DNA of 53,971 nt. Origin: a virus. Its lineage: Duplodnaviria; Caudoviricetes. Positions within the stretch are counted from its first letter, which is position 1. Every line of letters begins with the position of its first letter. Positions 4,766 to 46,571 of the stretch are shown piece after piece. A model generated the notes under the pieces. It saw only the letters and a list, made by a program, of their open reading frames with translations. It had not been told where the DNA came from and searched no databases. The position numbers were made by a program, and so were the translations under genes. The stretch lies in the IMG/VR virus record IMGVR_UViG_3300032292_000484, positions 1-53,971 of that record; one strand, 5' to 3'.

Positions 4766-4807
4766 TACTTATAAAAAAATAGAGTACTAACTCTATACTA
4801 AAGATTT

Positions 4808-4838
4808 ACACGCTCTTTATGAGCGTGTTTTTCTTTTT
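4808..4838 (+). terminator. intrinsic terminator after fibre cluster
   Basis: ACACGCTC-TTTAT-GAGCGTGT stem followed by TTTTCTTTTT; preceded by a second hairpin ATAGAGT-ACTA-ACTCTAT (4779-4796). Confidence 0.8.
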
Positions 4839-4844
4839 AAAGTA

Positions 4845-4853
4845 TGTTATACT
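4845..4853 (+). promoter_or_regulatory. extended -10 promoter TGTTATACT for RNR
   Basis: Matches the recurrent TGnTATAMT motif; lies immediately after the terminator. Confidence 0.65.
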
Positions 4854-4914
4854 TAGGTACTGCTTTAGAAAACATAAAGCACTCCGTTAATTTTACTTTG
4901 AAAGGTACATAAAA

Positions 4915-15040: not shown

Positions 15041-15682
15041 ATGCCATATAGTCGTGGAACGTCCAACAATATCATTGTTGGCGCAGCTGCACTTTTTATT
15101 GCAGATACAACATTAACTCCATCAACACTAAAGCCGTTTGTTGGAACAGAGTCTTTTAAGACTACACTTACAACTACACTAAATGCTGCAGACTACACAA
15201 ACGTAGGCTACACCATGAATGGTCTTGAACTACAGTTCCAGCCAGATTTTGGTGAAGTTCAGGTAGATCAGGTTCTTGACGTTGCTAAGCTATACAAGCA
15301 GGGTATGCAGGTTAGCCTTGCAACTGCTTTTGCTGAAGCTACTCTAGAAAATCTTCTACTAGCACTTGCATCACCAGAATCAAAGCTCTCAGGAACAAAG
15401 TCAACATCTGCAGGACAGGTCTTGGACATGTCAGCAGGAGACATTGGCGATGTTGCACTAGAGCGTGGTATCGTTGCCGTGGGTCCAGGAACTGGAAACC
15501 CTGCAACAGCTGCAGTTACAGAACGTGTATACACAGCATACCGTGCACTCTCAATTGAGAATGTTACAGTAGCAGCAAAGCGTGATGAGGCTTCAATGTT
15601 TGAAGTATCATTCCGTCTACTACCAGAAGATACTTCTGGATCATACGGTAAGATCGTTGACCGTACATTTGCACCAGCTTAA
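15041..15682 (+). CDS. major tail (tube) protein
   Basis: NIIVGAA.LF, VGYTMNGLEL, EVQVDQ, AEATLENL, KRDEASMFEVSFRLLP are siphophage tube motifs; high-expression codon bias. Confidence 0.85.
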   Translation: MPYSRGTSNNIIVGAAALFIADTTLTPSTLKPFVGTESFKTTLTTTLNAADYTNVGYTMNGLELQFQPDFGEVQVDQVLDVAKLYKQGMQVSLATAFAEATLENLLLALASPESKLSGTKSTSAGQVLDMSAGDIGDVALERGIVAVGPGTGNPATAAVTERVYTAYRALSIENVTVAAKRDEASMFEVSFRLLPEDTSGSYGKIVDRTFAPA

Positions 15683-15759: not shown

Positions 15760-16470
15760 ATGGCAACATCAATATATAAAACAAAAAACATCTATTTGTT
15801 TGACGGTACAGAAATAGAAATAATGCCTCTTAAGATTAAATATCTTAGAGAGTTTATGGATGTATTTAATAACATAAAAAAAGCATCAAATGATGATGAA
15901 TCAATGATGGTTTTATTAGAGTGTGCAAGAATTGCAATGAAACAGTACTATCCTAAAATATCTAAAAACATAGAAGACCTTGAAGACAACATAGACCTGC
16001 CAACAGTTAATGAAATTTTAGAAATTGCTGCAAACATAAAAATAGGTGAAGATTCAAAAGAAAGCATAAAAACTCAGGCCCAAAGCAGCGATGCTGGCCC
16101 ATCATGGGAAGATTTTGATTTAGCAAAGCTTGAATCAGAGGTGTTTTTGCTGGGTATATGGAAAGACTATAATGAACTAGAAACATCAATATCTTTATCT
16201 GAGCTATTAGCCATCATAGGAAGCAAAAGAGAATTAGACTATCAAGAAAAGAAATTTTTTGCAGCAATTCAAGGTGTTGATTTAGAAGGTGACTCTGAAA
16301 AGGGTCAAAAAGAATGGGAAGACATGAAGGCTAGAGTATTTAGCGGTGGAGCAACAAATGATAGTAATGACATACTATCATTGCAAGGACAAAATGCTCA
16401 AAGAGCAGGATTTGGAATTGGAATGGGTCTTGATTATGAAGACGCAAGAGACCCCTCTCTCATGGTATAA
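15760..16470 (+). CDS. tail assembly chaperone, long (GT-like) form encoded in one frame
   Basis: N-terminal ~100 aa align by eye with the next gene; about 130-aa extension; lies between tube and tape measure. Confidence 0.7.
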   Translation: MATSIYKTKNIYLFDGTEIEIMPLKIKYLREFMDVFNNIKKASNDDESMMVLLECARIAMKQYYPKISKNIEDLEDNIDLPTVNEILEIAANIKIGEDSKESIKTQAQSSDAGPSWEDFDLAKLESEVFLLGIWKDYNELETSISLSELLAIIGSKRELDYQEKKFFAAIQGVDLEGDSEKGQKEWEDMKARVFSGGATNDSNDILSLQGQNAQRAGFGIGMGLDYEDARDPSLMV

Positions 16471-16498: not shown

Positions 16499-16822
16499 AT
16501 GGCAACAACTGTGCATGAAGCGCATAAAGTCACATTAATTGATGGTACAGAAATAACCTTAAGACCGCTTAAGATTTCACTTTTACGAAAGTTTATGAAA
16601 AAGTTTGAGGGTGTTGCAGCAGTAGTAGAAGATAACGATAAGTCAATCAACCTACTAATGGAGTGTGTACTAATCGCAATGGAGCAATATAAGCCAGAGT
16701 TAGCAGGAGACGTTGCTGCGCTTGAGGAAAATATTGACTTGCCTACAGTCTATGAGATTGTTGAAACAGCATCAGGCATTAAGCTTTCTGATGCAGCATC
16801 AATCTTTAATACTGAAGAATAA
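16499..16822 (+). CDS. tail assembly chaperone, short (G-like) form
   Basis: 107 aa, directly before the tape measure gene; DGTEI...PLKI..LR.FM, EENIDLPTVYEI. Confidence 0.75.
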   Translation: MATTVHEAHKVTLIDGTEITLRPLKISLLRKFMKKFEGVAAVVEDNDKSINLLMECVLIAMEQYKPELAGDVAALEENIDLPTVYEIVETASGIKLSDAASIFNTEE

Positions 16823-16848: not shown

Positions 16849-19800
16849 ATGGCTGATGTTCAGTCCAATATTAAAGTAAGTATTGATACTACTGAGGCAC
16901 TTGCCAGTATCAAGAACTTACAGAGACAGATATCAGCCTTCCACACATCCATGGCCAAGAGTGGCGCTGCAGCAAATGCAGTCACTGGCCAAATGCAACA
17001 AAACTTAATTAATTCAATTAATGCTACAGGCAAGTTCTCTGCCCAAATGAGAACAATTAGAACAACTACAGAATCTTTTACAAACTCTTTAGAAAAAAAC
17101 AAATTCTCTATGGGAGAATACTTCAGATATGCTGGAGGTGCATCAAAAAGTTTTGGTAAGTTATTTAAAACTGAGTTTGAGACAATTAATAAAGTAGCAA
17201 GAGAAAATGTAAAAGACCTTCAAACACAATATATTAAGATGGGCCGTGATGCAAACGGTGCCATGAAGTCAATTGCTGTAAGACCACTTTCTCTTGATAT
17301 GAATAATCTTGCAACAAAAACAATGATTGCTTCTGAAAAACAAGCAATTCTTAATCAGCTATTAAAACAAGGTTCAACCAACCTTTTGAATTTTGGTAAA
17401 AATACACAGTGGGCTGGCCGTCAGCTTATGGTTGGATTTACAATACCATTAGTAGCACTGGGTACAGCAGCATCAAAAACATTTATGGACATGGAAGCAC
17501 AAGCAATACGATTTAAAAAGGTATACGGTGATCTATTTACATCAACAGAAGAAACTGCTGGAGCACTAGATGCAATTAAAAACCTTGGAAAAGAGTTTAC
17601 AAAATATGGAGTTGCAGTATCGCAAACAGTCGGATTAGCATCTGAAGCTGCAGCAGCAGGTTTTAAGGGCCTTGATCTTCAAAGACAAACAGCAGCTGCA
17701 ACCAAGCTTTCTATTTTGGGTCAAGTTGAAAGTCAAAAAGCACTTGAAACTACAATTGCTTTACAAAATGCATTCTCAATGTCATCTGAAGATTTAGCAA
17801 CCAATATTGACTTTCTTAACGCAGTAGAAAACCAAACAGTTTTATCTCTTGATGACATATCAACTGCAATTCCAAAAGCAGCACCAGTAATACAACAACT
17901 TGGTGGAGATGTTAAAGATTTAGCATTCTTCATGGCTGCAATGAAGGAAGGTGGAATCAACGCATCAGAAGGTGCTAACGCACTTAAGTCTGGTCTTGCT
18001 TCTATGATTAACCCTACTGCAAAGGCATCGGCAATGCTTTCAGGGCTTGGAATTAATATAAAAAAGATTGTTGTAGACAATAAGGGTGATTTAAAAAAGA
18101 CTGTCGTTGATTTTGCAACAGCTTTAAATCAACTTGATCCACTCAATAGAGCACAGGCTATTGAGCAGATGTTTGGTAAGTTCCAGTTTGCTCGTTTGTC
18201 TACACTTTTTGCAAACGTAACAAAAGAAGGAACTCAGGCATCACGTGTTCTTGATTTAGCTGGATCTTCAATCCAAGATCTTGCAGCTTTATCTGAAAAA
18301 GAATTAGGACAAACTTCAGAGTCTACAATGGTTAAGTTTAAGGCATCTATTGAGAATCTAAAACTATCTTTGGTTCCACTTGGAGAACAATTTCTAAAAA
18401 TAGTAACACCAATTGCCGAATTTGTTACAAAGATGCTGGACAAGTTTAATAATCTTGGAGATGGAACAAAGAAGATTATTGTTTTAGTAACAGGTGTTGT
18501 AGCTGGTCTTGGTCCAGTGTTGCTTATGACATTTGGTTTGCTTATGAATGGGCTTGCAAATATAATTAAGGGCTTTACATTCATGAAGTCTTTATTTAAT
18601 AAAACTGGTCAAGCATCTGCAACTTTAGGAACTGAAGTTAAGTATATGACTACAGAGCAAAGAAATGCAGCAGCGGTTGCAGCTTCTCTTGATCAGGTTC
18701 ATAAAAAGCTTGCACAAACTTTTAGCTCAGAAGCTGCCTCTGTTGATGCACTGACAAGAGCTTACCAAAGATCCATTGCAGCTCAATCACAATTTATGCC
18801 AAGTGGAATGCCTCTTGGTCGTGGGCCAATTAAAAAAAGAGCAAAGGGTAAGCCTTCAACTGTTGGCGGTACAGGAAATAAAGATTCAGAACTAGCATAC
18901 CTAATGCCTGGAGAAACAGTAATTCCTACAGACATGAGCAAGAAGTATGGTGCTTTAATTAATGGAATGATTGCTGATAATATTCCTGGATATCGTAAAG
19001 GACTAGGAACAGGAACAGCGGTTGATATTCCTGGAGGCTTTGCAGCTGCACACTTTGGTGGAAGCTCATATAAAACTGGTGCAGAACTTGTTAAAATGGT
19101 TGAAGGCGTTGACACTGCGTATGCAAAACAAATACGTCAGATGGTTACAGAGCTTAATGGTTTTGGTAGAAACTTTACAGTATTTAGTAATGAAGTTATT
19201 GGTACGTCTACAGAATTAAATAGAGCAGTTGGAAAAACTGGCACTGGAAAAACTGCACCAATTGCATTAGCAAAAAGAGACCTAATAGGATCTGGCGCTG
19301 CAACTAGAGACATTGAGTTGCAAAGACAGCTTGAAGCAGCAGGAGTTCCAATTGAAGAGATTAGAAAGATTAATAAGCAAGTAACAACAAAAATTAAAGA
19401 TGGTTTCTCAAAGCTAGGAAACAAAACAACAGTAGTAGCCGAAGATTTAGATAAGCTCGTTAATGATGCATATTCAGAAATGTCAAAAACAGATGATCGT
19501 GTAAAATCTGCTAGAGACAGAATGAGAAATATTACTGCAGTTACTGATCCAAGAAATGACTCTAGAATTGCCGTAAGTAAAGATCCATACACCAAGTACA
19601 GAAAGTCTGGAGCATACTACGGTGGCATGGAAAGATCTGCTGGACCAGATGCTGTTCCTTATCAAAAAAATGCAAGATTTAAAATTACAAATGCAATGGC
19701 AGGGTCTGTTGGACTTTCATCTAGTGAAACAGCAGCAGTATATAATCAGATGAATGATCAAGCAAAAGTTGCTCTAGCAAAACTTAAGGGCGATGTTGCT

Positions 19801-22800
19801 GCATTTAATTTAGAGTTCCAGAAACAAGCAGAACTTGCGGGACTTAAAATTGGACAATCCTATAAGGTTGGCGTAGATAAAAGCGGTCTAAAAGATATTT
19901 ATGTAGAGTCAAGACAAAGAAATAGCCCACACAGACTAGCTGGTAAAGATGGCAAAGATGATGCAGTTGCATATGTTAGAGCACGTCGTATTGCTACAAG
20001 AGCACAAGGACCTGTACCAATTAGTGTCATTCCAGTTTCTACAACTGGTCCACAAATCATTCCATCTGGTGGCCCTGCAGGCATTCCTTTAGAGGAAGAA
20101 ATGCTTGGTCCTAGAAAACCAACCAAGTATGATAAAACTGCAGGTAAAGCTGTTGGAAAATTTAGAGGGACTGCTGCAAAGATTGGTTCACGTGTTTCAG
20201 GCAGAGGCATGGGAATGGGACTGTCTACAGTTGCAATGATGGGATCTCAAATGATCCCTGGAAAAACTGGAGAGATGGTCCAAAAAATTGGTATGGTTGG
20301 ATTTGCAATTTCTGCATTACAGCCACTTATAACAGGACTTATAGCAGTTGTAGGTGGACTTACAGTTGGAATTGCAGCAGCAATATTAGCTATTGCTGCA
20401 ATTGGATTTGCTTGGGGTAAGGCTACAAAATCAGCATCAGACAAAATTGTAGATTCAGCTAAAAAAGAAGCAGAAGCAAGAGTTGGAAGCGCTAGAGCAA
20501 TAACACAATTTGCAAAAACATTCAATAAGGCACTTCCTAGCTCAAGAGAATTTAGTAGAAATAATACGCAAGGAATTAAGGCAAGCGGAACAATAGAAAG
20601 TGAGTTTGCTAAAGATTATGCAACTAAAGGAAATATCTCTGCACAGATTATTAATCAAGCAGCACTTGGTGGGGCAGAATCAGGAATAAATGCTGTAGCT
20701 CTTGATGTTGCAAATAAAGCAGCGGTACTTGGTTTATCTCCAGATGACATTGCTGCAAACATAAAAGCAGCATCAAAACTAATTGATGCAGATCAAGTAC
20801 AAGTTAAGCTTGCAGTACAAAAACTTCTTTCGCCAGACGGCAAAGACATATTAAAAGAACCACTATCTATTAAAGCTAGAATGGAATTTTTAAATAATCA
20901 AAGTCAGCCACAAATTAAAGCCCTTGAAGAACAGATTACAAATCTAGGTAGCCTTGACCTTGGACATATAAAGGGTACAAAAACTCCTGATGGACTGGCA
21001 CAAAAGTTTAACTTTACTTATAAAGGACTTAAAGAAGCAGCAGGAAAACAGCAATCAATTAATGATGCCTATGCTGAGGGTTGGTGGGGAAATGTAAAGG
21101 GAGTTGCACAACAGGTATGGAGAGAAACCTACGACGGTAGTACGATAGATCATCTTTTAACTACAAGATCGGTTGATGATTTTATCCAAAACATGAACGA
21201 AACAATGCCACAAACCATAGATGTTGTAAAGCAGTTTGCATCAGTAGAAGCAGAAATACAAGCATCAAGTACAGTCCTTTCAATTTCATTTATGCAACAA
21301 ACAGAAGCACTTGCTCTTTTAAATGCACAGTATGCTGATGGATTAATAAGTAAAGAGTCATATGATGCACAGCTAAAAGTATCTCAATCAAACTTCAGCG
21401 CTCTTGGAAAATCATCCTATAACCTAATAAAGCAATTAAATAAAATTGATTCAAGTGGAGAGCTTGCAGGAGCAGCAGTTAAAGATTTAGGAGATCAAGC
21501 ACTAGCAACTCTTAAAGCAGCAAATCCTGCACTATTTGATAAAATAACAAAATCATTTGAAGGAATAAGCAATGCAGCACAAATTCAAATTTATATGGGT
21601 TATGCAAAAGGCAGCTTAACAATAACTGATTTAGCAATACTTCCAGGAATCATTAAACAAATAGATGGCAAAACAGCTACTGTAGCATTAGAGATTATTG
21701 ATGGATCTCAGTTAAGCCCTAGAGCAAAAGCATCGCTAAAAACAAATGCTAAAAGAAAAGATATAAAAAGGGTTGAAGAAAAAATAGCTAACCTAAAAGC
21801 ATTTCCAGGTTCAGATCCAAATGGATATAAACTCAATACATATACACAAGAGCTTGAGATGTATAAGAAGGAGCTTGTAGCACTCTACAGAATAATAAAT
21901 GATACTGGAGTAAATCCAGTTGGAGACTTAAATACAGATGGCGTTAATGATTATAAAAATCTAGAAGATGGAACTGGAAAAGCAAAGACTGCTACAGAAA
22001 AATATCTTGAAGTTCTTCAAAAAGAAATTGATGCACTTAAAGCAAAACGTGATGCACAAAAAGATGCTAACGATGAGGTACAAAGAGAAATAGATTTGAA
22101 GATGAAGTTGCAGGATCTTGCTAACCAAGCAACAGAGGCAAAGATATCTGGTAACTACTTAAAGGCTTCAATGCTTACTCAAGAATCTCAAAATGTACAA
22201 ATGAAGTACAACCAAGAAACAGAATTAAGAAAGAAAGATGCTGAGATTGCAAGACTTGAAGCACGATATAACGCCATTGAGGGCGGTGCTAAGTTAACTA
22301 AGGCAGAGATAGCAAAGATACCTAAGAAGGCTGCTGGTGGCTCTATAAAGGGTCCAGGAACAAGCAAGTCTGACTCTATCCCAGCATATCTTTCAAATGG
22401 TGAATACGTAGTTCAAGCATCATCAGTTGCAAAATATGGAGTAGGGTTTTTTGATTCATTAAATGCCCAGAAATTTGGTGGAGGAAGTCTTGGCTCTGTT
22501 GCTCCAGTTACTAATCCTAGACCTGCTAAAACAAGCCCTCCAAAAATGGAATTGTGGGATTGGGAAAGAGCATGGCAAGAAGCAAATAAGCAGGTTGTTA
22601 AAGTTCCAACTCCAGCCATAAAAACTAACTTTGCTACAAATTCTTTTGCTTTAAATAAAGAACAAAGATTAGAGCTTCAAGCAATCGCAAAAGAACTTAT
22701 TGCTGCACAGGTAAAAGCTATAATTGTTCAAGGACATACAGACTCAGTAGGTAGTGGAAAAGATAATAAAGTTCTTTCACAAAATAGAGCAAATGCTATT

Positions 22801-23391
22801 GCTGAATATATATCAAAATTTGTTCCTGGTACAGGATTTGTTCCAGTAGGATATGGTGAGTATAAGCCACTTGTTCCAAATACAACTGCTGAAAATAGAG
22901 CTAGAAATAGAAGAGCAGAGCTTATTATGCCAGATAAGTATAAAACAATATATCCAGAGTTCCAACCTGCAAAGCATAGATGGATAATTAATCTAGGCAA
23001 ACTTGAGGGCGGAGGCAGCATTCAGGGCGGTGGCATGATGACTAGCGGTGTCGGTCTGAAAGATTCATTTAAGCCGACACCAAAGAAAACAGAACAGCCT
23101 AAAAGAATGTTGGTGTCTGGATTTGCAAACGGTGGACTAGCCAACTATAGACTTCCTTCTTATGAAGTTGGTTCTCCATACATACCTAAAGATCAGATTG
23201 CACAGCTTCATAAGGGTGAGCGTGTGCTAACAGCAGAAGAAAACAAAAACTTTACAACATCTGGCCCAATCACTAATATTATAAATATCAACGGTAGCGA
23301 TTTAAACAAAAAAGAAATTGCAACAGCTGTTATGGTAGAATTAGACAGAGCACAGAAGAAAAACAATAAAACGAATATGGTGAACAACTAA
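16849..23391 (+). CDS. tape measure protein with C-terminal OmpA-like domain
   Basis: 2180 aa, largest gene, follows the chaperones; tape-measure core (GRQLMVGFTIPL...FKKVYG...EGANALKS), two hydrophobic segments, repeated GE.V modules, GHTD...LSQNRA...GYGE..P...N...R.RNRR OmpA signature. Confidence 0.92.
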   Translation: MADVQSNIKVSIDTTEALASIKNLQRQISAFHTSMAKSGAAANAVTGQMQQNLINSINATGKFSAQMRTIRTTTESFTNSLEKNKFSMGEYFRYAGGASKSFGKLFKTEFETINKVARENVKDLQTQYIKMGRDANGAMKSIAVRPLSLDMNNLATKTMIASEKQAILNQLLKQGSTNLLNFGKNTQWAGRQLMVGFTIPLVALGTAASKTFMDMEAQAIRFKKVYGDLFTSTEETAGALDAIKNLGKEFTKYGVAVSQTVGLASEAAAAGFKGLDLQRQTAAATKLSILGQVESQKALETTIALQNAFSMSSEDLATNIDFLNAVENQTVLSLDDISTAIPKAAPVIQQLGGDVKDLAFFMAAMKEGGINASEGANALKSGLASMINPTAKASAMLSGLGINIKKIVVDNKGDLKKTVVDFATALNQLDPLNRAQAIEQMFGKFQFARLSTLFANVTKEGTQASRVLDLAGSSIQDLAALSEKELGQTSESTMVKFKASIENLKLSLVPLGEQFLKIVTPIAEFVTKMLDKFNNLGDGTKKIIVLVTGVVAGLGPVLLMTFGLLMNGLANIIKGFTFMKSLFNKTGQASATLGTEVKYMTTEQRNAAAVAASLDQVHKKLAQTFSSEAASVDALTRAYQRSIAAQSQFMPSGMPLGRGPIKKRAKGKPSTVGGTGNKDSELAYLMPGETVIPTDMSKKYGALINGMIADNIPGYRKGLGTGTAVDIPGGFAAAHFGGSSYKTGAELVKMVEGVDTAYAKQIRQMVTELNGFGRNFTVFSNEVIGTSTELNRAVGKTGTGKTAPIALAKRDLIGSGAATRDIELQRQLEAAGVPIEEIRKINKQVTTKIKDGFSKLGNKTTVVAEDLDKLVNDAYSEMSKTDDRVKSARDRMRNITAVTDPRNDSRIAVSKDPYTKYRKSGAYYGGMERSAGPDAVPYQKNARFKITNAMAGSVGLSSSETAAVYNQMNDQAKVALAKLKGDVAAFNLEFQKQAELAGLKIGQSYKVGVDKSGLKDIYVESRQRNSPHRLAGKDGKDDAVAYVRARRIATRAQGPVPISVIPVSTTGPQIIPSGGPAGIPLEEEMLGPRKPTKYDKTAGKAVGKFRGTAAKIGSRVSGRGMGMGLSTVAMMGSQMIPGKTGEMVQKIGMVGFAISALQPLITGLIAVVGGLTVGIAAAILAIAAIGFAWGKATKSASDKIVDSAKKEAEARVGSARAITQFAKTFNKALPSSREFSRNNTQGIKASGTIESEFAKDYATKGNISAQIINQAALGGAESGINAVALDVANKAAVLGLSPDDIAANIKAASKLIDADQVQVKLAVQKLLSPDGKDILKEPLSIKARMEFLNNQSQPQIKALEEQITNLGSLDLGHIKGTKTPDGLAQKFNFTYKGLKEAAGKQQSINDAYAEGWWGNVKGVAQQVWRETYDGSTIDHLLTTRSVDDFIQNMNETMPQTIDVVKQFASVEAEIQASSTVLSISFMQQTEALALLNAQYADGLISKESYDAQLKVSQSNFSALGKSSYNLIKQLNKIDSSGELAGAAVKDLGDQALATLKAANPALFDKITKSFEGISNAAQIQIYMGYAKGSLTITDLAILPGIIKQIDGKTATVALEIIDGSQLSPRAKASLKTNAKRKDIKRVEEKIANLKAFPGSDPNGYKLNTYTQELEMYKKELVALYRIINDTGVNPVGDLNTDGVNDYKNLEDGTGKAKTATEKYLEVLQKEIDALKAKRDAQKDANDEVQREIDLKMKLQDLANQATEAKISGNYLKASMLTQESQNVQMKYNQETELRKKDAEIARLEARYNAIEGGAKLTKAEIAKIPKKAAGGSIKGPGTSKSDSIPAYLSNGEYVVQASSVAKYGVGFFDSLNAQKFGGGSLGSVAPVTNPRPAKTSPPKMELWDWERAWQEANKQVVKVPTPAIKTNFATNSFALNKEQRLELQAIAKELIAAQVKAIIVQGHTDSVGSGKDNKVLSQNRANAIAEYISKFVPGTGFVPVGYGEYKPLVPNTTAENRARNRRAELIMPDKYKTIYPEFQPAKHRWIINLGKLEGGGSIQGGGMMTSGVGLKDSFKPTPKKTEQPKRMLVSGFANGGLANYRLPSYEVGSPYIPKDQIAQLHKGERVLTAEENKNFTTSGPITNIININGSDLNKKEIATAVMVELDRAQKKNNKTNMVNN

Positions 23392-23867
23392 TGGCATATC
23401 TATTAGAGTCTGGACTTCAAATAGGACTAACGGTAAATGGCCCATGGCAAAAATTAACAGACCACAATAGAGAGCCTATAAATATTACCCCAGAATTGCT
23501 ACAACAAGAAGTACGCATGGCAAATGGCAAAATGAGAAAATATGTTGTTGCTCAAAAAAATACTATTTCGTGTTCTTGGAGCTATGTTCCATCAAAGCAG
23601 TCTGATTGTATTGATGGTAACTACAGTGCTGCTTGGCTTGAATCATTTTATGCATCCAATGCTGGCCTGCCAATTTTCCTAAAGGTTGTATCTTCAGAGC
23701 TTAATACAGACCCAGCCTTTGGAGCATTGCCTTCAGGAACTTTTGTAACAGCTCAGACTGGATCAAAAGTATATAACGTATACATGACTGATTTTTCTAA
23801 AACCATAATTAATAGAACAAAGGTTTCAGACTACGTTGATATGAATATTGAATTTACGGAGATATAA
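23391..23867 (+). CDS. distal tail (Dit-like) protein
   Basis: Directly after TMP; RMANGKMRKY..K..ISCSWS and C-terminal MNIEFTEI are typical of Dit/minor tail proteins. Confidence 0.65.
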   Translation: MAYLLESGLQIGLTVNGPWQKLTDHNREPINITPELLQQEVRMANGKMRKYVVAQKNTISCSWSYVPSKQSDCIDGNYSAAWLESFYASNAGLPIFLKVVSSELNTDPAFGALPSGTFVTAQTGSKVYNVYMTDFSKTIINRTKVSDYVDMNIEFTEI

Positions 23868-26800
23868 TGTTAAATGTAGGGGCATTGACACAAACTCAAA
23901 GTACTGATATATTTACAAAATCAGATTCAATCAAATTGCTTCCAGTAGTTTCTGCTGAGTGGAATCACAACTTATTTAATCCACCATACATTACAACTGC
24001 AGGAACAGGAGCAGTTATAAATTGGACATCAGAGGTAACAACTCCTGATGTAACTACAGGTAAAAAAGAAAATTTTACAACAAAAAGCTTTAATATGTCT
24101 GGCGGTACTGGATCAGTATCATACACAAAATCTGGACTATCTGGAAAAGCATATAAGATAATTACATATATAAAGACAAATAGCTCAACACCAGTTATGA
24201 TAACAGCCTTTGCTAAGGGCACAAGCAATCAGTATGGCTCAGAAAGTATTGAGGCAGACTCATTAGGATGGACTAAAGCTATAACATATATCGGATCTTA
24301 TGGGTCATTAGAAACTATATCTTCTTTTGTATATAAAATAACTGCTAACTCTATAAGTGGTGATGAAGTTAATCCTACCGTTTATTTTACAAAGCCAGAA
24401 ATCTATGAAACAACTAAGTTTGATCTTTATAATAATTCACTGTTTCCTACAGATGCCCCATTTAAATATTTTAGACCAGGTGAGTCTTATGTATCAACTG
24501 GAAATGCAAAGTACTCGTTTCCAGAAAAACATAGAAAAATAACATCAAAGCTTTTGAACACTGAGACTTTATCTGCAGGAGTATATGGGAACAAGTATTC
24601 TCCAATTAGCTCTATTTTACAAAACCCAAGTTTTTTTCTTGCAGCACCACCAATGCCAACAGTAAAGTCTGCACTGCCATCTGATCTTGCACCATATAAA
24701 TACTTTGTTTCAGATTCAACATCAAAAAGCATAACTGCAATATATAAAACAAGCATCTTAACCAATAAACTTGTTTTAAAGTTTAACACATTGATGGCAG
24801 TTCCAACCATAAATATTTCTATAAATGATTCAGTAATTACTGTTGATGGATCTCAAGCGATTGTTCCACCAACAAACTCAGACTCAGTAAGAACTGGAGT
24901 CATCGTTTTGTATTGGACAGGATCAGCTTGGACCAAAACACCTTGGACAACAATGCCACAGTTTAATTCTGCTGGAGCGCTTTCTATTTCAACAAACATA
25001 AATAAAATAACAGTAACTCAAACACTAAGTCAGCCAAAAACAGAGATGTCTTCAGTTACTGGTGTATCAACTCCTACTTCTAATATTGCATTAGACCTAC
25101 AAAGAATGCACCTAATTGAAATATCTCCTAGACTTGAAATAGACTTAACCGATTTTGTAGAAAATGTTGACATAGAAAAGTCTTTAGACTCTGCTAAAAC
25201 TGCACTACCATTATCTTCAATAAATACAAATGATGCAAGAATAAGTTTGTCTGCAATACCAGCTATTAATGGATCAACACTTGTGCCAATCTTTTCTAGC
25301 CAAAGCAATCAAACATCAACAGTACTTGCAAATATTTTAAGAAAGAATATTAAATTTTATATTAACTTTAACCTTGTTGATTATGTCACTGCTGGATCAA
25401 CACCAACTATTAACTCAAACCCATATATTCCAGGAGGAGTTTTTTATTCAGATACTTGGGAAGAAAATGATATTGCAAATGTGTCAATACAGTGTTTTGA
25501 TGTTTCAAGATATTTACAATCAACACCAGTTCCAGACTATGTGGCAAACTTAAAAACTGTTTTTGAAGTAATAACTAATATCCTAGATCTTGCGGGATTT
25601 ACAGATTACGACTATGATTCACTATATAAGATATGTAACAGCAAGTCTAACCCACTAGACTTATCATATTACTACTGTAACTCAAAAGACACCACAGTAC
25701 TTGATGCCCTAAGCCAAATATTTATTGCCTATCAGATAGGTGCCTACATTGATGAATACGGTATCATGAAGTTTTTAAGCCTTAAAGACATATTGTCTTC
25801 CCCTGCATCAATAATGACAATATCAGACTCTGATATTCTAGAAGGTGGTTTTACTATATCCAACGCTGCTAAGCCAGGAAAAATAGCTTTAAGGTATCAA
25901 ACACCTAAGGTTAAGCAGTCGCCATCATTACAAAATGTAACAAACTTAGAAATAAAAAATTCACCTTCTTTTATTTACACAACCTCAAACGATGTTGTAT
26001 GGCAGCAGCAAACAATAGACTCTGTTGGATTTAATTATCTTGATGCCACTATGTCAGAGGATTCAAATGTTTTTAAAATTAATAATAATGACCTTATGGA
26101 TATATTCCATACCTTTAATATGAATAATGAAGGTTATGCAGCAATTGAAAACGAAATTGTTTCTTTTGTATATAAAGAGTACGAATTAACTAATATGGAT
26201 AACAACAATTCTAAAAAAGTATCCATTAAAAATAATCTTCAGTTGTCTTCAGAAATAAATCAATTTATAAAAGAGTCTGGCGTTCTTTTAAAACAGAAAT
26301 CCGCAATAGTCACAAATGCAATTGGAGATGGAGTTTTAACGACCTACACTGCAGAAAATAATTTTGCAACAGGAGATAGAATTACTATAAGTGGTATGGT
26401 TCCAACAGAGTTTAATATTTCTGGAACAGTTCTTGAAGCAGACTCAACTAGCTTTATAATGCTTACAACTTCTCATTCACTTAATCCAGTAACTAAAGCA
26501 GGTGCTGCAATTACTGCTAGCACATCAGATATTCTTATAACTCCAACAGGAAACATTACAAATGTAAAGCGTGGTATGTTTGGAACGGCTGCATCAGAGC
26601 ATAAAAGAATAACTTCATTAGCAAGCAAGGGTTTGTCTGAAAAAAAGATTGATGGATACTACAATACAATATCATCATCTAACACAGCCTCTATTATAAA
26701 CAGCAAGACAGCAAATGCAAGCATAACAGATATTCTGCCAAGCATTGACAAGATTAGAGTGCAAACATTTGGTACTGATAAAACTATTATATATCCTACA

Positions 26801-28243
26801 GATGCAGTTGATCAAGGATATCACACATATTCTGTTAAATTTGATATGCCAGACCAAGCAGTAACAACTGCAGGTTTATTTTTTAATATGAAAAGCACAA
26901 CAGAAAGTGATTGGGCATACTTTGTTGAGCTTATTAAATATAACTCAATAAAACCAGGTACCGTTGAACTCTATGATCCACCAAGATACAAGTACGTTCT
27001 GACATTAAGAACAGATAACCAAATAATTGCATGGTCTGAAGTAACAGGTGAATGTCAAAACATCACAAATAATTTTTGTAAAATAATAAATAAAACCGAA
27101 GTAGATGGTAAATATGAGTATGATTATATTAATGATGATTCTTTTAACCTTAAGGTAGTTCACTACCTTTCAGATGGAACAACTGGTGAAGATGGAACCC
27201 CTGAAATTAAGAGAAACATTATTTCTGTATTTTTAAATAATGTTGAATTAAATGGATGGCAAGTTCCTGGACCCACAGCAGGCTCTGAAACAAATGGAAC
27301 TGGTTTTAACCCAACAAGCATAAATCCATTAACTGGAGTAAGAAGAAAACCTTCTGTTGCAAACGATATGAATCTTGGAACAAAGTTTGGCTTTGTATCA
27401 TCATCATCTCCAAACCTCATAGATGGTCTTTATCCACAGCTTCCGTTCCCAACTTCAAACTCAAACCATGCATCATCTTTAAGAGAAATACATGCAACCA
27501 CAAAACCTTTAATAGAAAGAAGCGTAAGCTATTTTTATCAGGATAGACAATTTTTAAATGGTTTAATTCAAGATCAAAACCTAGCTTCTTTGTCTCCAAG
27601 CTATATTATGCAAACAACGCCTTCAGTTTCTGGCATTAATGTTTATGATGTACAATATACATCTCCAGCAGCTGTCAGTGTTGATGTACTTCCTGTTGAA
27701 TATCTTTGGTATTACTTTCCAGGAGATACCCCGCAAGATCAAAAAAATTATCAGAAAAAGCTTGTTGATGAACATTCTTTGTCATACTCAACACCTATCA
27801 ACACTGGATTTAGAGCAAAGTTAGCAATTGCAAATAATGCACCACACCTTGTATTTTTACGTAAAGAGTCAGATGATCTAAATCAATTTACAATTAACCT
27901 TAATCTATGGACACATGAAATTGTTGCACCATCAGATCCAGAGATTCTTGAAAGAATCATTGATGAATCAAACCCTTCTGAAGTTGTACAGCTTGACTCT
28001 CAGTGGATTCAGTCTAAAGAAGCAGCAACAAAGATGTTAAAGATAGTTCAGATGGCAATAGATGGTTTTTCAAAAACAGTTCTATTAGAAATTTTTGGAA
28101 ATCCATTAATACAGGTTGGTGACGTAATTACTTTGAACTATTCTCTTAATGGTATTAGCGGACAGAAGTATATGGTCCAATCAGTAAGCCACAGCTTTGA
28201 GCAGGGGCTTTCTACATCACTAAAAATGAACAGGCTTGAATAA
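23867..28243 (+). CDS. tail tip / baseplate hub protein
   Basis: 1458 aa after Dit; YIDEYGIMKF, QLDSQWIQSKEAA, LEIFGNPLIQVGDVI...YMVQSVSHS hub-type motifs. Confidence 0.75.
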   Translation: MLNVGALTQTQSTDIFTKSDSIKLLPVVSAEWNHNLFNPPYITTAGTGAVINWTSEVTTPDVTTGKKENFTTKSFNMSGGTGSVSYTKSGLSGKAYKIITYIKTNSSTPVMITAFAKGTSNQYGSESIEADSLGWTKAITYIGSYGSLETISSFVYKITANSISGDEVNPTVYFTKPEIYETTKFDLYNNSLFPTDAPFKYFRPGESYVSTGNAKYSFPEKHRKITSKLLNTETLSAGVYGNKYSPISSILQNPSFFLAAPPMPTVKSALPSDLAPYKYFVSDSTSKSITAIYKTSILTNKLVLKFNTLMAVPTINISINDSVITVDGSQAIVPPTNSDSVRTGVIVLYWTGSAWTKTPWTTMPQFNSAGALSISTNINKITVTQTLSQPKTEMSSVTGVSTPTSNIALDLQRMHLIEISPRLEIDLTDFVENVDIEKSLDSAKTALPLSSINTNDARISLSAIPAINGSTLVPIFSSQSNQTSTVLANILRKNIKFYINFNLVDYVTAGSTPTINSNPYIPGGVFYSDTWEENDIANVSIQCFDVSRYLQSTPVPDYVANLKTVFEVITNILDLAGFTDYDYDSLYKICNSKSNPLDLSYYYCNSKDTTVLDALSQIFIAYQIGAYIDEYGIMKFLSLKDILSSPASIMTISDSDILEGGFTISNAAKPGKIALRYQTPKVKQSPSLQNVTNLEIKNSPSFIYTTSNDVVWQQQTIDSVGFNYLDATMSEDSNVFKINNNDLMDIFHTFNMNNEGYAAIENEIVSFVYKEYELTNMDNNNSKKVSIKNNLQLSSEINQFIKESGVLLKQKSAIVTNAIGDGVLTTYTAENNFATGDRITISGMVPTEFNISGTVLEADSTSFIMLTTSHSLNPVTKAGAAITASTSDILITPTGNITNVKRGMFGTAASEHKRITSLASKGLSEKKIDGYYNTISSSNTASIINSKTANASITDILPSIDKIRVQTFGTDKTIIYPTDAVDQGYHTYSVKFDMPDQAVTTAGLFFNMKSTTESDWAYFVELIKYNSIKPGTVELYDPPRYKYVLTLRTDNQIIAWSEVTGECQNITNNFCKIINKTEVDGKYEYDYINDDSFNLKVVHYLSDGTTGEDGTPEIKRNIISVFLNNVELNGWQVPGPTAGSETNGTGFNPTSINPLTGVRRKPSVANDMNLGTKFGFVSSSSPNLIDGLYPQLPFPTSNSNHASSLREIHATTKPLIERSVSYFYQDRQFLNGLIQDQNLASLSPSYIMQTTPSVSGINVYDVQYTSPAAVSVDVLPVEYLWYYFPGDTPQDQKNYQKKLVDEHSLSYSTPINTGFRAKLAIANNAPHLVFLRKESDDLNQFTINLNLWTHEIVAPSDPEILERIIDESNPSEVVQLDSQWIQSKEAATKMLKIVQMAIDGFSKTVLLEIFGNPLIQVGDVITLNYSLNGISGQKYMVQSVSHSFEQGLSTSLKMNRLE

Positions 28244-28254
28244 TACCATCGCTA

Positions 28255-28263
28255 TGGTATAAT
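28255..28263 (+). promoter_or_regulatory. extended -10 promoter TGGTATAAT
   Basis: Consensus, intergenic; AGGAG RBS before ATG 28283. Confidence 0.7.
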
Positions 28264-28282
28264 TGAAATCTAGGAGACCACA

Positions 28283-28807
28283 ATGGCATATATCAAAATA
28301 TCAGATCCAAACGTAATAGACCTTGCTGCATGGCAGCAAGTTATCAATGTTGTTAATCAGCATAGCGATAGTATTACTGCTATAACTAACAACTTTGGAA
28401 GCCAGGGAACAGGCGAAACAAACTGGAATGGTACATCAGATTTATCTCATGAGTATGACCCAGGATCACAAAAAATTGTTTACGGAAAAAATAAATTTAT
28501 TACAGCAGATGCTGCATTTTTTACATCAACAGATAATAAGAAGCATGTCTACTATGGAGAAGTTGTATTTGCAGATGAAGTGTCTGGAGCAACATCATTT
28601 AGTGCAATGCCAATTGTTACATGTTCATTATATTTTAGTAGCCCAACAGCTACAACATCTGGCGCTAATCTAATAGTGACAGCTCAATCAATAACAGAAG
28701 CAGGATTTACATACAGAGTTATGGATTCAAGAAGTACACAAGCAGCTGGAGTTCCTATTGTTGCAACACAATTTTATATAAACTGGATGGCAATTGGGCC
28801 AAAATAA
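28283..28807 (+). CDS. minor tail / short fibre protein (gp53-like or H-type lectin-like C-terminus)
   Basis: V.F...FSAMPIVT...ITEAGFT...INWMAIG is a common phage fibre C-terminal fold signature. Confidence 0.6.
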   Translation: MAYIKISDPNVIDLAAWQQVINVVNQHSDSITAITNNFGSQGTGETNWNGTSDLSHEYDPGSQKIVYGKNKFITADAAFFTSTDNKKHVYYGEVVFADEVSGATSFSAMPIVTCSLYFSSPTATTSGANLIVTAQSITEAGFTYRVMDSRSTQAAGVPIVATQFYINWMAIGPK

Positions 28808-28820
28808 ATAAGAGGCCAAA

Positions 28821-31800
28821 TTGAAATCAAAATATACAAGCGGAAAATCAGTTGGTAAAAACCAAACGGTACCAATTGATGTTGATGACCCAAGATTAAA
28901 GCCAGGTAAGATAGGACAAACAAAAGCACGACAAGGTGCTGAAATTGATGTTATTGGCCTAGATGGTAAATCATTAATAATGGGTGGAAGAGGATTAAAC
29001 AACTCTACAGGTTCAACTCCATATTTTCCACCAGTGCCTCCAGATTTTAGTCCTATTATTCCAAGAGGTGGAAATAAACCTCCTAAAACATACCCTGGCG
29101 GTTCAGGACCTATTATTATTGTTCCAACAGATCCTACAAATGTTACTGCTGAATGGGTTAATAATGATTTAGTTATATCCTTTGATTGGGATTATGCAAA
29201 CGATGTTAATGATTCTGTATCACAGTTTATTGTTCAGCTCACTTCTGGCGGTGTAACAAAGAGATCACAATCAAATATTTTCTTACCAAATACTACACAA
29301 ACTAGACAAACCATCACAGTAACAAAATCAATTATTACATCTATGTTTAACGTATTTAAAACAGGATTTTCTTCTATATGTGTATTAACTGCAGACCCAT
29401 TAAATAACATAAGTAATACGATTTGTGCATTAACCATTCCAACTTATGTTTTAAGTCTGCCAGTTCCAGTAATTACAGTTTCACCAATAGCGGGTGGATA
29501 CAGTGTTGCATACACTACACCAACAGAAGACGTATATGATGCAATTGATATTGCAGAGTATGAGTCAACAAGTGCAACAGAACCAACTGGTGTTACATAT
29601 ACACGAACATATTTAGGAACTATTAATCCAGCAAATATTATTTCTTCTGGATCTAATAAGAGATGGGTTAAGGCAAGGTTTTCTTCTGATGCTGGTATTT
29701 ATACTGCATACTCCGCTGCACAAGCAGTAACACCAACAAGCCCTGTAGTTGCAGATAATGAGGGTCCACCAGACATTACATCACTCACCACATCTGGCGG
29801 AATAGATTCTAAAGGAACCATTGGATTTAATGGCTATGTTGATCTTTCGTGGGGCGCTATAACAGCTGGAGATATTCGTGGGTACAGAATAAGATATAGG
29901 CCAGTCTCAAATCCAGTGTCAAATTATTCTTATGCAGATTCAAAAGGATCTGGAACATCTTATAGGCTACATGGACTAAGCATTGGAGCAACATATGAAA
30001 TTGCCGTTGCAACATATGATCAATACAACAATCTTTCTTCAAATTACTTTGCTGGCAATAATGTTGAGATAGGTGGAACACCCTATATTGCAAGTGAAAC
30101 TGTGAATGTTTCTGGATATTTTAAAGCAAAAGCGAATGCATCTGATTTAGACAGCACAGCTTTTAAGTTTGGATATGGAATTCAAGACTCTGGTCCATCA
30201 CAACGTGGATTAAGGTTTAACACATACAACTATTGGCGTATTGATTCAGATCAATCAGCTTCAATAAGAGTTGGTGGAGAAAATTCAAACTATATTGAAT
30301 GGAGCGGTTCTGATTTTGTAATTGATGGAAATATCTCTGCAAGAAAAGGAACATTTAGTGGCAACGTTACAATTGCTGGCGGAGGATCTCTTCAATCATT
30401 TATTACACCACCAACAGTATTTGCAATATCTGGAGTTACTTATACGCCAACAGCTGCAACCTATACAGCAACAGCCCACGGGTATGTGGTTGGAGATGAC
30501 ATACTTGTTTCTGGACTTTTGCCAGAAGGTTACAACGGCAAATTTAGAGTAACAGCACAAACAGCAAATACTTTTACAGTAGCTAATACAACTAACGCAG
30601 TTCTTACAGATAGTGTTGGATCAGTTATTAAGATTACAGGAACTGGGTTTGTATTAAATAAAGATGGTATAGCTTTTAACTCTTCAACAACTAGAGACAT
30701 AACAACAATAAGATCATCAGATGGACTCTTTACAACAAAGAGTGCAAACATTGGTGGATGGAATGTAGACTCATCATCTATATCAAGATCTGGAACTGCA
30801 AACATATCTTTAAATTCAAGTGCTGGAAATATATCTGTAAGTTCACAAAACATTGCTGGCTACACAGCTGGTATAAATGGTCCATATATCTCTACTGGTG
30901 ATACACCATCAGATAATATTAATGGAACACCAATTGGAACTGAGAACGTATTTTGGGCAGGATCTGACTCACTTGGCCCAATAGGAACAACTCATGCTTT
31001 TAGAGTGACGCTAGCTGGAAACCTATATGCATCAAATGCTAAGATTACTGGAACGGTGTCCAGCGTTGGTGCACTAGGAACAATGACTATGGACGGCGAG
31101 CATGGATACATGTCTCTTCAAACAGCAGGCGTTGGTGCATCTGGATCAGTTTCTTATTTGGTTCCAAGAAATAATAATATTTATTTAACAAGTCCAACAC
31201 CTCTTAGTCAACCACCTTGGTCAGTTGGAAAACAAATAGCATCTAGTGGTCCAACAAATGGGCCATATCTTGCAGTTGGATCAGAATTTAAAGACTATTG
31301 GAATAATACTTCTGTCAAAGGTGTAGGACTATATACAGGAAGTTGGGATTATTTTACTCTTGGTAGAAGCGATCCATTCATCACTGCAAGCACAACTGGC
31401 ATTCAACTATCAGTAAGCCCAGAACTTGGACTTCTTTTAGATGCAGGAACCAATGCAACTGGAAACAAGCTTAATCCAGCAATTCCAACAGGTTCAAAGT
31501 CAATGCTGTTTTATACTGCAAAAAGAACTACCCTTGGTCCAAATGGGCAGCCAGTGTATTCTCCCAATACGGAATACGGTGCATGGGCCTCGTTTACTAA
31601 TAATACTATTAAGCTAACTGCTGATGAATTTTTGTTTATAAATATACAAGGATCAGCAACTGCAGCAGATAGAAAGATTCTTATGAAGGCAACAGATCTT
31701 ATTGCTTATCAAATGAATTCAGATGGTATCAAAATAATGATTGATGATGATACCCATCAAACATTTTTGAATGATAAGATTAAGATTCAGGCAACAGCTA

Positions 31801-32285
31801 ATGTATATCAAACACTTGACTCAACTGGAATTAAGATTCAATCTACAACAGATATTTGGCAACAATTTACATCAACCAAAATAAGAACACAAATATCAAG
31901 TGGCGTATATCAAGAGTTTGATTCATCATCAATAACATTAACTTCAGGATTGTCTATTGCAGCAGATGCCCAGACTGGTATATATGCTGGACTATCAAAG
32001 ATTGTTATTGATACAGTTGGTGTTAACATCACTGGTATTCCACGAGCAGCAACATTTGATATGGCTGACTATAGAACTGCACCAGGACAACAAGGAAATT
32101 ATAGAAATAGACCACCCATGGGATATTTGCCAAGACAAAGAGCAATTATTGAAGACCCAGTAACTGGTAGAGCAGAGCTTGGATTTGGTATATACTATCT
32201 GGATCTAAGCAAAATAAATATAGATGAGACAGGCTCTCCATCTGATAATACGGGTATTGTAGGAGATCTTGCGGTGATGTTCTAA
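28821..32285 (+). CDS. minor tail protein with fibronectin type III domains
   Basis: PTDPTNVTA, VDLSW...GYRIRYRP...LHGLSIGATYEIAVATYD (FN3); FVIDGNISARKGTFSG, ANIGGWNV; beta-repeat C-terminal region. Confidence 0.7.
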   Translation: MKSKYTSGKSVGKNQTVPIDVDDPRLKPGKIGQTKARQGAEIDVIGLDGKSLIMGGRGLNNSTGSTPYFPPVPPDFSPIIPRGGNKPPKTYPGGSGPIIIVPTDPTNVTAEWVNNDLVISFDWDYANDVNDSVSQFIVQLTSGGVTKRSQSNIFLPNTTQTRQTITVTKSIITSMFNVFKTGFSSICVLTADPLNNISNTICALTIPTYVLSLPVPVITVSPIAGGYSVAYTTPTEDVYDAIDIAEYESTSATEPTGVTYTRTYLGTINPANIISSGSNKRWVKARFSSDAGIYTAYSAAQAVTPTSPVVADNEGPPDITSLTTSGGIDSKGTIGFNGYVDLSWGAITAGDIRGYRIRYRPVSNPVSNYSYADSKGSGTSYRLHGLSIGATYEIAVATYDQYNNLSSNYFAGNNVEIGGTPYIASETVNVSGYFKAKANASDLDSTAFKFGYGIQDSGPSQRGLRFNTYNYWRIDSDQSASIRVGGENSNYIEWSGSDFVIDGNISARKGTFSGNVTIAGGGSLQSFITPPTVFAISGVTYTPTAATYTATAHGYVVGDDILVSGLLPEGYNGKFRVTAQTANTFTVANTTNAVLTDSVGSVIKITGTGFVLNKDGIAFNSSTTRDITTIRSSDGLFTTKSANIGGWNVDSSSISRSGTANISLNSSAGNISVSSQNIAGYTAGINGPYISTGDTPSDNINGTPIGTENVFWAGSDSLGPIGTTHAFRVTLAGNLYASNAKITGTVSSVGALGTMTMDGEHGYMSLQTAGVGASGSVSYLVPRNNNIYLTSPTPLSQPPWSVGKQIASSGPTNGPYLAVGSEFKDYWNNTSVKGVGLYTGSWDYFTLGRSDPFITASTTGIQLSVSPELGLLLDAGTNATGNKLNPAIPTGSKSMLFYTAKRTTLGPNGQPVYSPNTEYGAWASFTNNTIKLTADEFLFINIQGSATAADRKILMKATDLIAYQMNSDGIKIMIDDDTHQTFLNDKIKIQATANVYQTLDSTGIKIQSTTDIWQQFTSTKIRTQISSGVYQEFDSSSITLTSGLSIAADAQTGIYAGLSKIVIDTVGVNITGIPRAATFDMADYRTAPGQQGNYRNRPPMGYLPRQRAIIEDPVTGRAELGFGIYYLDLSKINIDETGSPSDNTGIVGDLAVMF

Positions 32286-38067: not shown

Positions 38068-38375
38068 TGGCTGAACGCAAAGACCGAATGGCTTTGCTTA
38101 GTAGATACTCAAAATTGCATACAGCAAAATATGAGCAAAAGCCATCCTTAAATTTAAATGTTGAACAGTGGGCAGCAGACGGACTAGTTGAGTCATATGG
38201 AATGTCACAGTGCTATGAGTTGCTGGATTATTATTTTTCTGTTGCACAAGAAACAAGCTGGAACTATTTTGCTTACAACGCAGAAAAGATTCTTAATGGT
38301 AAACTAGATGTAGAGCAAGACATAAAAGACAGACAAGAGCGCAGGAAAAAAGCAAAGGAGTGGCTAAGTGAATAA
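38067..38375 (+). CDS. hypothetical protein (possible helicase loader / initiator)
   Basis: Coupled upstream of the helicase; function from position only. Confidence 0.5.
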   Translation: MAERKDRMALLSRYSKLHTAKYEQKPSLNLNVEQWAADGLVESYGMSQCYELLDYYFSVAQETSWNYFAYNAEKILNGKLDVEQDIKDRQERRKKAKEWLSE

Positions 38376-40507: not shown

Positions 40508-40537
40508 AAACAATAACAAAAAAAGGAGCATGACAAA

Positions 40538-41194: not shown

Positions 41195-41197
41195 TAG

Positions 41198-44473: not shown

Positions 44474-44783
44474 TGTTTTAGCAGAGAAGATACATGCAAA
44501 TGCAGTAGAAAAAGGATTTTGGGATAGACCAGCAGATGAAATCTTTGTAACAAAACAAATGATGATGATTGTGTCTGAAGTTGTTGAAGCAATGGAAGCA
44601 TTAAGAAAAGATATGGAGCCAAGCCAGCTGTCAGATGAGTTTGCGGACATTATTATTCGCACTCTAGATCTTTATGCAGGTATGCTAAAAGCAGGGTATG
44701 TAACTAAATCACTGGACTCTGCAGTCAAACAAAAGATGGAAAAGAATCAAGATAGGCCAAAGAAGCATGGGGTAAGATTCTAA
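44466..44783 (+). CDS. MazG-like nucleotide pyrophosphohydrolase
   Basis: SEVVEAMEA...DEFADIIIR.LD and KMEKN..RP.KHG. Confidence 0.8.
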   Translation: MFDVLAEKIHANAVEKGFWDRPADEIFVTKQMMMIVSEVVEAMEALRKDMEPSQLSDEFADIIIRTLDLYAGMLKAGYVTKSLDSAVKQKMEKNQDRPKKHGVRF

Positions 44784-46540: not shown

Positions 46541-46542
46541 CC

Positions 46543-46551: not shown

Positions 46552-46571
46552 TATATAAACAAAGGAATATA

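Follow-up and report, generated by a model that had tools for sequence, protein, structure and literature searches.

A complete OmpA_C-like domain within the tape measure protein of a metagenome-derived tailed phage

The virus sequence IMGVR_UViG_3300032292_000484 (Caudoviricetes; 53,971 nucleotides, the whole stretch being referred to here as the window), a metagenome-derived IMG/VR record estimated to be 50% complete, encodes a tape measure protein (TMP) of 2180 residues that contains a complete OmpA_C-like domain, a member of PF00691 by every feature tested. An earlier reading, made from the sequence alone and without database searches (the sequence-only reading), had placed an OmpA/MotB-type peptidoglycan-binding domain at positions 22618-22929. 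That interval, on the forward strand, is free of stop codons and in frame within the open reading frame (ORF) of the TMP, of which it encodes residues 1924-2027, and its peptide, IKTNFATNSFALNKEQRLELQAIAKEL...VQGHTDSVGSGKDNKVLSQNRANAIAEY...VGYGEYKPLVPNTTAENRARNRRAELIM, is as quoted there. The Pfam search proposed along with that reading finds PF00691 at residues 1928-2021 with 59.3 bits against a curated cut-off of 27.2 (E 5.1e-16, profile positions 2-98 of 98); the 104-residue piece searched alone gives E 1.1e-17, and a six-frame search of the record returns the same family at 22630-22911 with 63.9 bits. The protein around the domain is a TMP of the TP901 type, as seen from its PF10145 profile, gene position, hydrophobic segments and great length, and its ORF is matched by nine PHROG tape-measure families (best phrog_10030, E 1.6e-97).

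Solved structures agree with this assignment. By sequence, 41 solved OmpA-like chains match at E <=1e-5, the best being TagL of the type VI system of enteroaggregative Escherichia coli (5m38, E 1.1e-14; also 7bba) and the Klebsiella OmpA domain 7rjj, with OprF (5u1h) and YfiB also among the best; mycobacterial Rv0899 and Acinetobacter baumannii OmpA are likewise matched. An AlphaFold model of the module, based on an alignment of 43 TMP and cellular domains, has a mean predicted local distance difference test score (pLDDT) of 80.4, with 84-94 in the core blocks, and its elements (E, strand; H, helix) follow each other in the order E-H-E-H-E-H-E, the alternating strand-helix fold of solved peptidoglycan-binding domains. 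This model replaced a poor earlier run on 14 TMP modules alone (mean pLDDT 52); loci L034, L036, L037, L045, L050, L057 and L097 were left out of the 43-sequence alignment for a stop codon within the tblastn range. With the model, Foldseek returns 123 PDB matches at E <=0.001, topped by YfiB 4zhw (TM score 0.89 by target length, root-mean-square deviation 1.5 A over 106 columns) and including OprF, TagL, Pal, MotB, mycobacterial OmpATb, Bacillus subtilis MotS and 3td5, the A. baumannii domain with a bound pentapeptide containing diaminopimelate (DAP). In the ESM Atlas only generic OmpA clusters are matched. A profile score above cut-off, sequence matches to solved structures, the predicted fold and a real TMP around it bear out the OmpA_C-like signature first noticed in the sequence.

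The Asp of GHTD and the Arg of LSxxRA had been singled out as binders of the DAP stem peptide, and their retention agrees with this. DAP is bound by Asp271 and Arg286 in A. baumannii OmpA, as stated in a passage of PMC5974059 that cites Park et al. 2012. Their counterparts D1965 and R1980 are present with the same spacing of 15 residues, and neither varies in 14 of 14 related TMP modules (48-79% identical to that of the window) or in any of the 43 aligned TMP and cellular domains. GH[TA]D is kept in 23/23 IMG/VR TMP loci and LS[QL]NRA in the 22 of 22 that reach that far, locus L025 stopping earlier at a contig end. Since every column invariant in the mixed 43-sequence alignment, the NRR motif included, is also invariant within the TMP clade, there is no sign of decay of the pocket; judged by these retained residues, the domain should be ligand-competent.

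The conserved unit exceeds the interval originally marked. It comprises about 150 residues (about 1900-2045) and consists of an N-terminal extension, the OmpA-like core and a family-specific tail, PDKYKTIYPEFxPxxH, with a mean column identity of 66% in the alignment of 14 TMP modules; the pattern P-x-x-Y-K-T-x-Y-P, directly after the Pfam core, is invariant. Pro-rich linkers had been noted on both sides: the upstream flank is Pro-rich (APVTNPRPAKTSPPK), and the downstream flank is Gly-rich first and then Pro-rich (GKLEGGGSIQGGG...FKPTPKKTEQPK). Ahead of the upstream linker, the segment with the 'DSIPAYLSNGEYV' motif is 45-76% identical in 49 of 50 other TMPs compared and 100% identical in the near-identical P0003, and it is also found in TMPs that lack the module (45-71% in 36 of 37). 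In 15 of 15 proteins a DSIPAxLSNGEY motif lies ~80-110 residues before the module, and the module precedes the C-terminal end. That end, the C-terminal block, is 55-100% identical in 8 OmpA-bearing TMPs and 67-87% identical in 37 OmpA-less TMPs, with two further weak matches at 34-37%; by analogy with phage T5 it is expected in the tail tip. As a separate observation, the more general motif D-S-[IE]-[PL]-A-x-L-x-x-G-E-x-V occurs in three copies in the TMP, the third being degenerate; in the TMPs of relatives one copy always stands ahead of the OmpA module, and copies bracket other cargo. The repeated DSIPA-type motif looks like a junction or docking element of a modular C-terminal region.

In order to find relatives, a word-indexed search was made with TMP residues 1880-2180 against proteins of 1199-3815 residues (1688 candidates). 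Its 57 matches are the query, 14 TMP-type proteins with PF00691, 37 TMPs without PF00691, in which the common part in that search is the last ~90 residues, and 5 unrelated cellular proteins. A scan of IMG/VR gave 26 loci. Open frames of 1729-4268 residues contain the module (54-76% identity) in 23 of them; the remaining three are small unrelated OmpA proteins. The same OmpA-bearing TMP frame of 2380 residues is present on seven IMG/VR contigs (L016-L022), and one cluster member is recorded on 27 contigs; because this frame recurs on so many contigs, the phage type that carries it seems widespread. Searched against 1.84 billion representatives, the module profile matches over its entire length together with the flanks in no more than 8 proteins, each of which carries TMP motifs or is a C-terminal fragment of a TMP, and the lower-ranked matches are generic or multi-domain OmpA proteins. 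Among long OmpA-bearing profile matches, P0105, P0123, P0155 and P0175 were set aside as cellular surface proteins; in P0055 (2704 residues) the OmpA domain is terminal, and the TMP motifs are all missing. P0072 (3892 residues) is a TMP of the same family, with the module at about residues 2640-2820.

This recurrence bears on the possibility that a fragment of a bacterial OmpA gene was put into the TMP frame by a chimeric contig or a mis-joined ORF. The same junctions are found in P0003, a 98% identical protein on another contig, as well as in 13 further proteins and in the 23 IMG/VR loci, and no break in GC content is seen at 21-24 kb. As the module recurs in many independent contigs, a chimeric assembly is excluded; nothing was found to support an artefact, which is hardly conceivable.

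The sequence-only reading had considered a non-catalytic wall binder in a TMP unusual, and the counts agree: the combination of TMP and OmpA-like domain was found in 14 further TMPs from metagenomes, at 23 loci of IMG/VR and in none of 50,697 deposited phage records. A tblastn search of the domain against these records gave 6 weak matches at 34.5-37.8% identity, none of the six lying in a TMP-sized frame. Two are annotated as yiaD outer-membrane proteins; the unannotated matches H1, H5 and H6 lie in open frames of 535, 228 and 608 residues, and H2 has the record length, coordinates and score of H1. A megablast of the TMP gene against deposited phages gave no match. In the literature searched, outside which most subscription journals lie, no description of an OmpA-like domain in a TMP was found; passages of PMC8143477, PMC8776804, PMC5313236, PMC8705779 and PMC13277306 deal with OmpA or wall-binding domains in other contexts. 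Some source annotations already name TMP fragments OmpA-like proteins. In two huge uncultured phage records, unannotated frames of 535 and 608 residues, neither of them TMP-sized, end C-terminally in OmpA-like domains that are 35-38% identical to that of the window (4747-6351 of a 735-kb record, L119, and 4489-6312 of a 462-kb record, L121).

Within this family the module appears to move independently of the protein that carries it. P0007 is 39% identical to the window TMP in its N-terminus and 84% in its module, the corresponding values for P0008 being 93% and 60%, and modules are 63-84% identical in TMPs of which the N-terminal 650 residues are only 36-43% identical. Because module identity is independent of scaffold identity, the module can be regarded as swappable cargo. 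In 6 of 15 proteins, the window TMP among them, no further unit separates it from the C-terminal block, and in the other nine another 550-1900 residues follow; the window TMP is a minimal form, with the OmpA module as its sole recognisable cargo. Among the long forms, TMPs P0004, P0007, P0010 and P0013 and loci L004-L015 have 3683-4268 residues, of which 998-2078 lie beyond the OmpA module, and in these stretches HExxH, kinase-like HGDxxxxN and ADP-ribosyltransferase-like YRG...SWS...EQE patterns were noticed by eye. Pfam finds nothing besides PF10145 and PF00691 in three OmpA-bearing long relatives.

Phylogenetically, 11 TMP modules group in a single clade (99/99) that has short branches within it and is separated from the cellular domains by a stem of 1.47 changes per column. 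To me the sequences speak for one capture event, after which related phages exchanged or lost the module. No donor of the domain could be named, for only generic OmpA matches were found and the stem of the tree is long and unbroken. A scan of 185,579 species genomes was seeded by two short patterns and is hence biased; among the best 80 of its 566 loci there is no prophage and no relative of the TMP. The long stem would also suit a domain that has been re-used for something other than host peptidoglycan, either as a plug or docking piece of the tail tip in assembly or as a binder of another carboxylate-bearing wall polymer. The invariant tail P-x-x-Y-K-T-x-Y-P, which occurs in TMPs only among the 1.84 billion representatives, and the dispensability of the module in close relatives point the same way. 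However, the residues invariant in cellular domains, among them the DAP-binding Asp and Arg and the NRR motif, are all kept, which would not be expected after loss of the ligand, and I consider such a re-use quite unlikely.

The host is probably an actinobacterium, because WhiB is present in the complete relatives and because the nearest phages infect Streptomyces. WhiB (PF02467) is encoded in three of five larger module-bearing records and in 3/3 of the 100% complete ones (112-116 kb), the two records without it being 71% and 73% complete. According to passages of PMC10202952, PMC6802176 and PMC10914622, WhiB is restricted to Actinobacteriota and serves as a marker for phages that infect them. 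The window, representing about one half of a genome, has neither a WhiB gene nor a tRNA gene; its capsid-type protein is 82% identical to that of G003, a complete and WhiB-bearing record, and 40-41% identical to those of the other records. Among deposited phages, those nearest in both the capsid protein and the N-terminus of the TMP are Streptomyces phages of 121-135 kb, with 44% identity for the capsid protein (127 of 233 matching records) and 27-29% for the TMP N-terminus (127 of 302). A Gram-negative host with a periplasmic anchor, which I had favoured at first, was dropped on these WhiB and Streptomyces-phage results. The label 'OmpA/MotB-type' should not be read as a pointer to a Gram-negative host, and the Foldseek matches include OmpA-like domains from Gram-positive contexts (mycobacterial OmpATb and B. 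subtilis MotS). A DAP-type wall, at which the sequence-only reading had hinted, is compatible with the actinobacterial assignment.

As to function, I lean towards the view that the module would serve as a wall anchor, holding the expelled TMP during entry of the DNA. I infer this role, as well as the order of ejection, the folding outside the tail and the binding of peptidoglycan, the role itself from position and family. In phage T5, according to passages of a preprint (bioRxiv 10.1101/2022.09.20.507954), the C-terminal fragment of the TMP is located in the tail tip and leaves it before the rest; digestion of peptidoglycan, perhaps once the fragment has refolded, is the role proposed for it, and hydrophobic segments of the TMP form a channel. 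The module under study, self-contained and between flexible linkers in the C-terminal part of the TMP, may behave similarly. By analogy with other siphophages, the C-terminus of the TMP would lie in the tail tip and come out first once the tip opens, so that the module would appear at the wall of the host and, if necessary after refolding, bind stem peptides of peptidoglycan non-covalently through D1965 and R1980. Once bound, it would pin the expelled TMP, and thereby the tail tip, to the wall, and the hydrophobic segments of the TMP could meanwhile reach the membrane and form a path for the DNA. With a probable actinobacterial host, the module would have as its ligand the wall of a Gram-positive-type envelope instead of a sacculus in a periplasm.

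Several observations weigh against such an anchor. The hydrophobic segments of the TMP (residues 540-569 and 1147-1193) lie N-terminal to the module, and strict threading with the C-terminus first would therefore place the wall binder deeper than the membrane segments, an order more in keeping with a two-membrane than with a Gram-positive envelope. Three folded domains side by side may be too large for the lumen of the tail, and confidence in the model is low for the family-specific flanks of the module (pLDDT 55-65). The nearest cellular OmpA-like domains, among the best 80 of the 566 loci mentioned above, are 30-52% identical and come from outer-membrane or unnamed bacteria. Furthermore, the module is missing from 37 TMPs that share the C-terminal block and are 66-91% identical in their N-termini, and no recognisable substitute was found in the four of these that were scanned; as such close relatives do without it, the module is dispensable for this type of tail.

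Alternatively, the module could be a targeting or positioning domain, comparable to the wall-binding domains of lysins, that holds the tip on peptidoglycan while a wall-cutting activity elsewhere in the virion makes a local opening; the TMP itself or the large tail-tip proteins would contain this activity in a domain so far unrecognised. The cargoes known from TMPs are wall hydrolases, such as the motif of phage TM4 (PMC1796659) and the zinc carboxypeptidase motif of T5 pb2C, and much of the TMP as well as the tail proteins of 1154-1458 residues have no assigned family, which leaves room for an unrecognised enzyme. However, no hydrolase family was found in the TMP, either at E <=0.01, where Pfam gives PF10145 and PF00691 only, or with four segments of it at E <=1. 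In the tail proteins encoded at 23391-36436 Pfam detects nothing but fn3 and PHROGs adds only phrog_10359, and hydrolase families are equally absent from the other window ORFs scanned and from seven relatives (three with the OmpA module, four without). As far as its sequence tells, the window TMP is not a member of the hydrolase-bearing group of TMPs, the search for a catalytic feature having found none in families that Pfam can recognise, and I consider the targeting function unlikely.

It is very unlikely, and at present speculation, that the module acts on the physiology of the host after entry, for example by binding nascent stem peptides at the face of the membrane, with local disturbance of wall synthesis or division, or by plugging the entry hole. 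Relatives do carry a further 550-2078 residues of variable cargo after the module, and passages of PMC13277306 suggest that C-terminal motifs of actinophage TMPs may modulate host physiology, but the few copies that arrive per infection would hardly alter wall synthesis.

The wall anchor can be joined with the variable cargo in a more inclusive picture, which is possible but doubtful: the OmpA-like module may be the fixed wall anchor of a modular injection polyprotein. The TMP would then be a scaffold of which the C-terminal region takes exchangeable units, separated by DSIPAxLSNGEY junctions, and the wall binder would be the point at which the expelled chain is pinned on actinobacterial peptidoglycan. 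The chain beyond the binder, which is only the C-terminal block in the window and up to ~2000 residues of enzyme-like cargo in relatives, would head for the membrane and the cytoplasm. The domain itself, of a type familiar from outer-membrane tethers and the stators of motors, would have been captured once, probably from an outer-membrane bacterium, and re-used by phages with Gram-positive hosts to hold the DNA conduit.

Table 1. Positions in the window of the TMP gene and of the features discussed
Feature	Residues of TMP	Position	Strand	Basis
TMP gene, 2180 residues		16849..23391, stop included	+	ORF list, translation, PF10145, PHROG TMP families
PhageMin_Tail (PF10145) core	241-443	17569..18177	+	Pfam, E 1.8e-25
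Hydrophobic (membrane-type) segment 1	540-569	18466..18555	+	Kyte-Doolittle
Motif D-S-[IE]-[PL]-A-x-L-x-x-G-E-x-V, three copies	~679-700, 1842-1854, 2110-2131	18883-18948, 22372-22410, 23176-23240	+	
Hydrophobic cluster 2	1147-1193	20287..20427	+	hydrophobicity scan
Conserved 'DSIPAYLSNGEYV' motif segment	1831-1886	22339..22506	+	TMP comparison; phrog_23013 at residues 1829-1874
Pro-rich linker	1887-1899	22507..22545	+	sequence; alignment shows no conservation
Conserved putative wall-binding module	1900-2045	22546..22983	+	14-module TMP alignment, profile search
OmpA_C-like core (PF00691)	1928-2021	22630..22911	+	Pfam, six-frame search, structure matches
Codon of D1965 (Asp of GHTD), counterpart of A. 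baumannii OmpA Asp271	1965	22741..22743	+	alignments
Codon of R1980 (Arg of LSQNRA), counterpart of A. baumannii OmpA Arg286	1980	22786..22788	+	alignments
Gly-rich, then Pro-rich linker	2046-2089	22984..23115	+	sequence, alignment
C-terminal block	2090-2180	23116..23388	+	common to module-bearing and module-less TMPs

The positions of these features are given in Table 1, in which hydrophobic segment 1 was called with a Kyte-Doolittle window of 19 and a mean of at least 1.6. Upstream of the TMP gene lie genes for a portal, a protease, a capsid-type protein, an Ig-domain tail protein (15041-15682) and two chaperone-like ORFs; downstream, an ORF at 23391-23867 is followed by a minor tail protein (23867-28243). 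The TMP gene thus stands behind tail-tube and chaperone-like ORFs and ahead of the distal tail genes. The two ORFs that adjoin the TMP gene on its 5' side (15760-16470 and 16499-16822) both match phrog_10504 over their N-termini, the former also matching phrog_10474, and look like a duplicated or split chaperone pair that replaces the usual frameshifted one. The region 23867-36436 encodes three very large tail proteins of 1458, 1154 and 1383 residues with almost no assignable domains: the sole match of the first (23867-28243) is the minor-tail-protein family phrog_10359 of PHROGs, and in the other two Pfam finds fn3 repeats only. Elsewhere in the window, at 4915-6948 and 38368-47357, a replication set includes ribonucleotide reductase, a DnaB-like helicase, a DnaG-type primase, a polymerase III alpha subunit of 1091 residues, RecA and a Cas4-like PD-(D/E)XK nuclease.

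Little is known of how an expelled TMP passes the cell wall and where it ends up, especially for phages with Gram-positive or uncultured hosts. A TMP with a non-catalytic wall binder as its only recognisable cargo offers a simple handle: with mutations at two residues, a contribution of physical anchoring on peptidoglycan to genome delivery could be tested. It also shows that the cargo of TMPs extends beyond wall-cutting enzymes. If the host is confirmed, a domain known as that of an "outer membrane protein" would be at work in a phage of Actinobacteria, and the ligand preference of the module would give information on the chemistry of the walls of abundant hosts not yet cultured.

Among known TMPs, that of mycobacteriophage TM4 and pb2 of T5 resemble the window protein in having an accessory wall-directed unit in the C-terminal part of a siphophage TMP, and the host of TM4 is an actinobacterium, as that of the window phage probably is. 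In TM4, according to PMC1796659, the hydrolase motif of the TMP aids infection of stationary cells. Both this motif and the zinc carboxypeptidase of pb2 are catalytic, whereas the unit in the window TMP is a non-catalytic OmpA_C-like binder.

In profile, fold and spacing of the Asp and Arg, the domain resembles those of A. baumannii OmpA (3td3/3td5), Pal, OprF, YfiB, MotB and MotS, and OmpATb/ArfA of Mycobacterium tuberculosis. In contrast to these cellular OmpA_C-like domains, it is part of a virion protein, belongs to a separate clade and has an invariant C-terminal tail of its own. TagL, the best sequence match among solved structures, is alike in a further respect, as there too an OmpA-like domain is joined to a phage-tail-like injection apparatus; the OmpA-like domain of TagL fixes the type VI apparatus to the wall. 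The two domains are similar only as members of the OmpA-like group, and I make no claim that the systems have a common ancestor. The association with TssL and TssM that marks the TagL type is absent, the context of the window domain being a phage tail gene module, and general scans of the window ORFs turned up no secretion-system genes. The two also differ in the wall concerned: TagL binds that of the machine's own cell, within a membrane complex, whereas the domain described here would travel inside the tail and bind the wall of the target cell.

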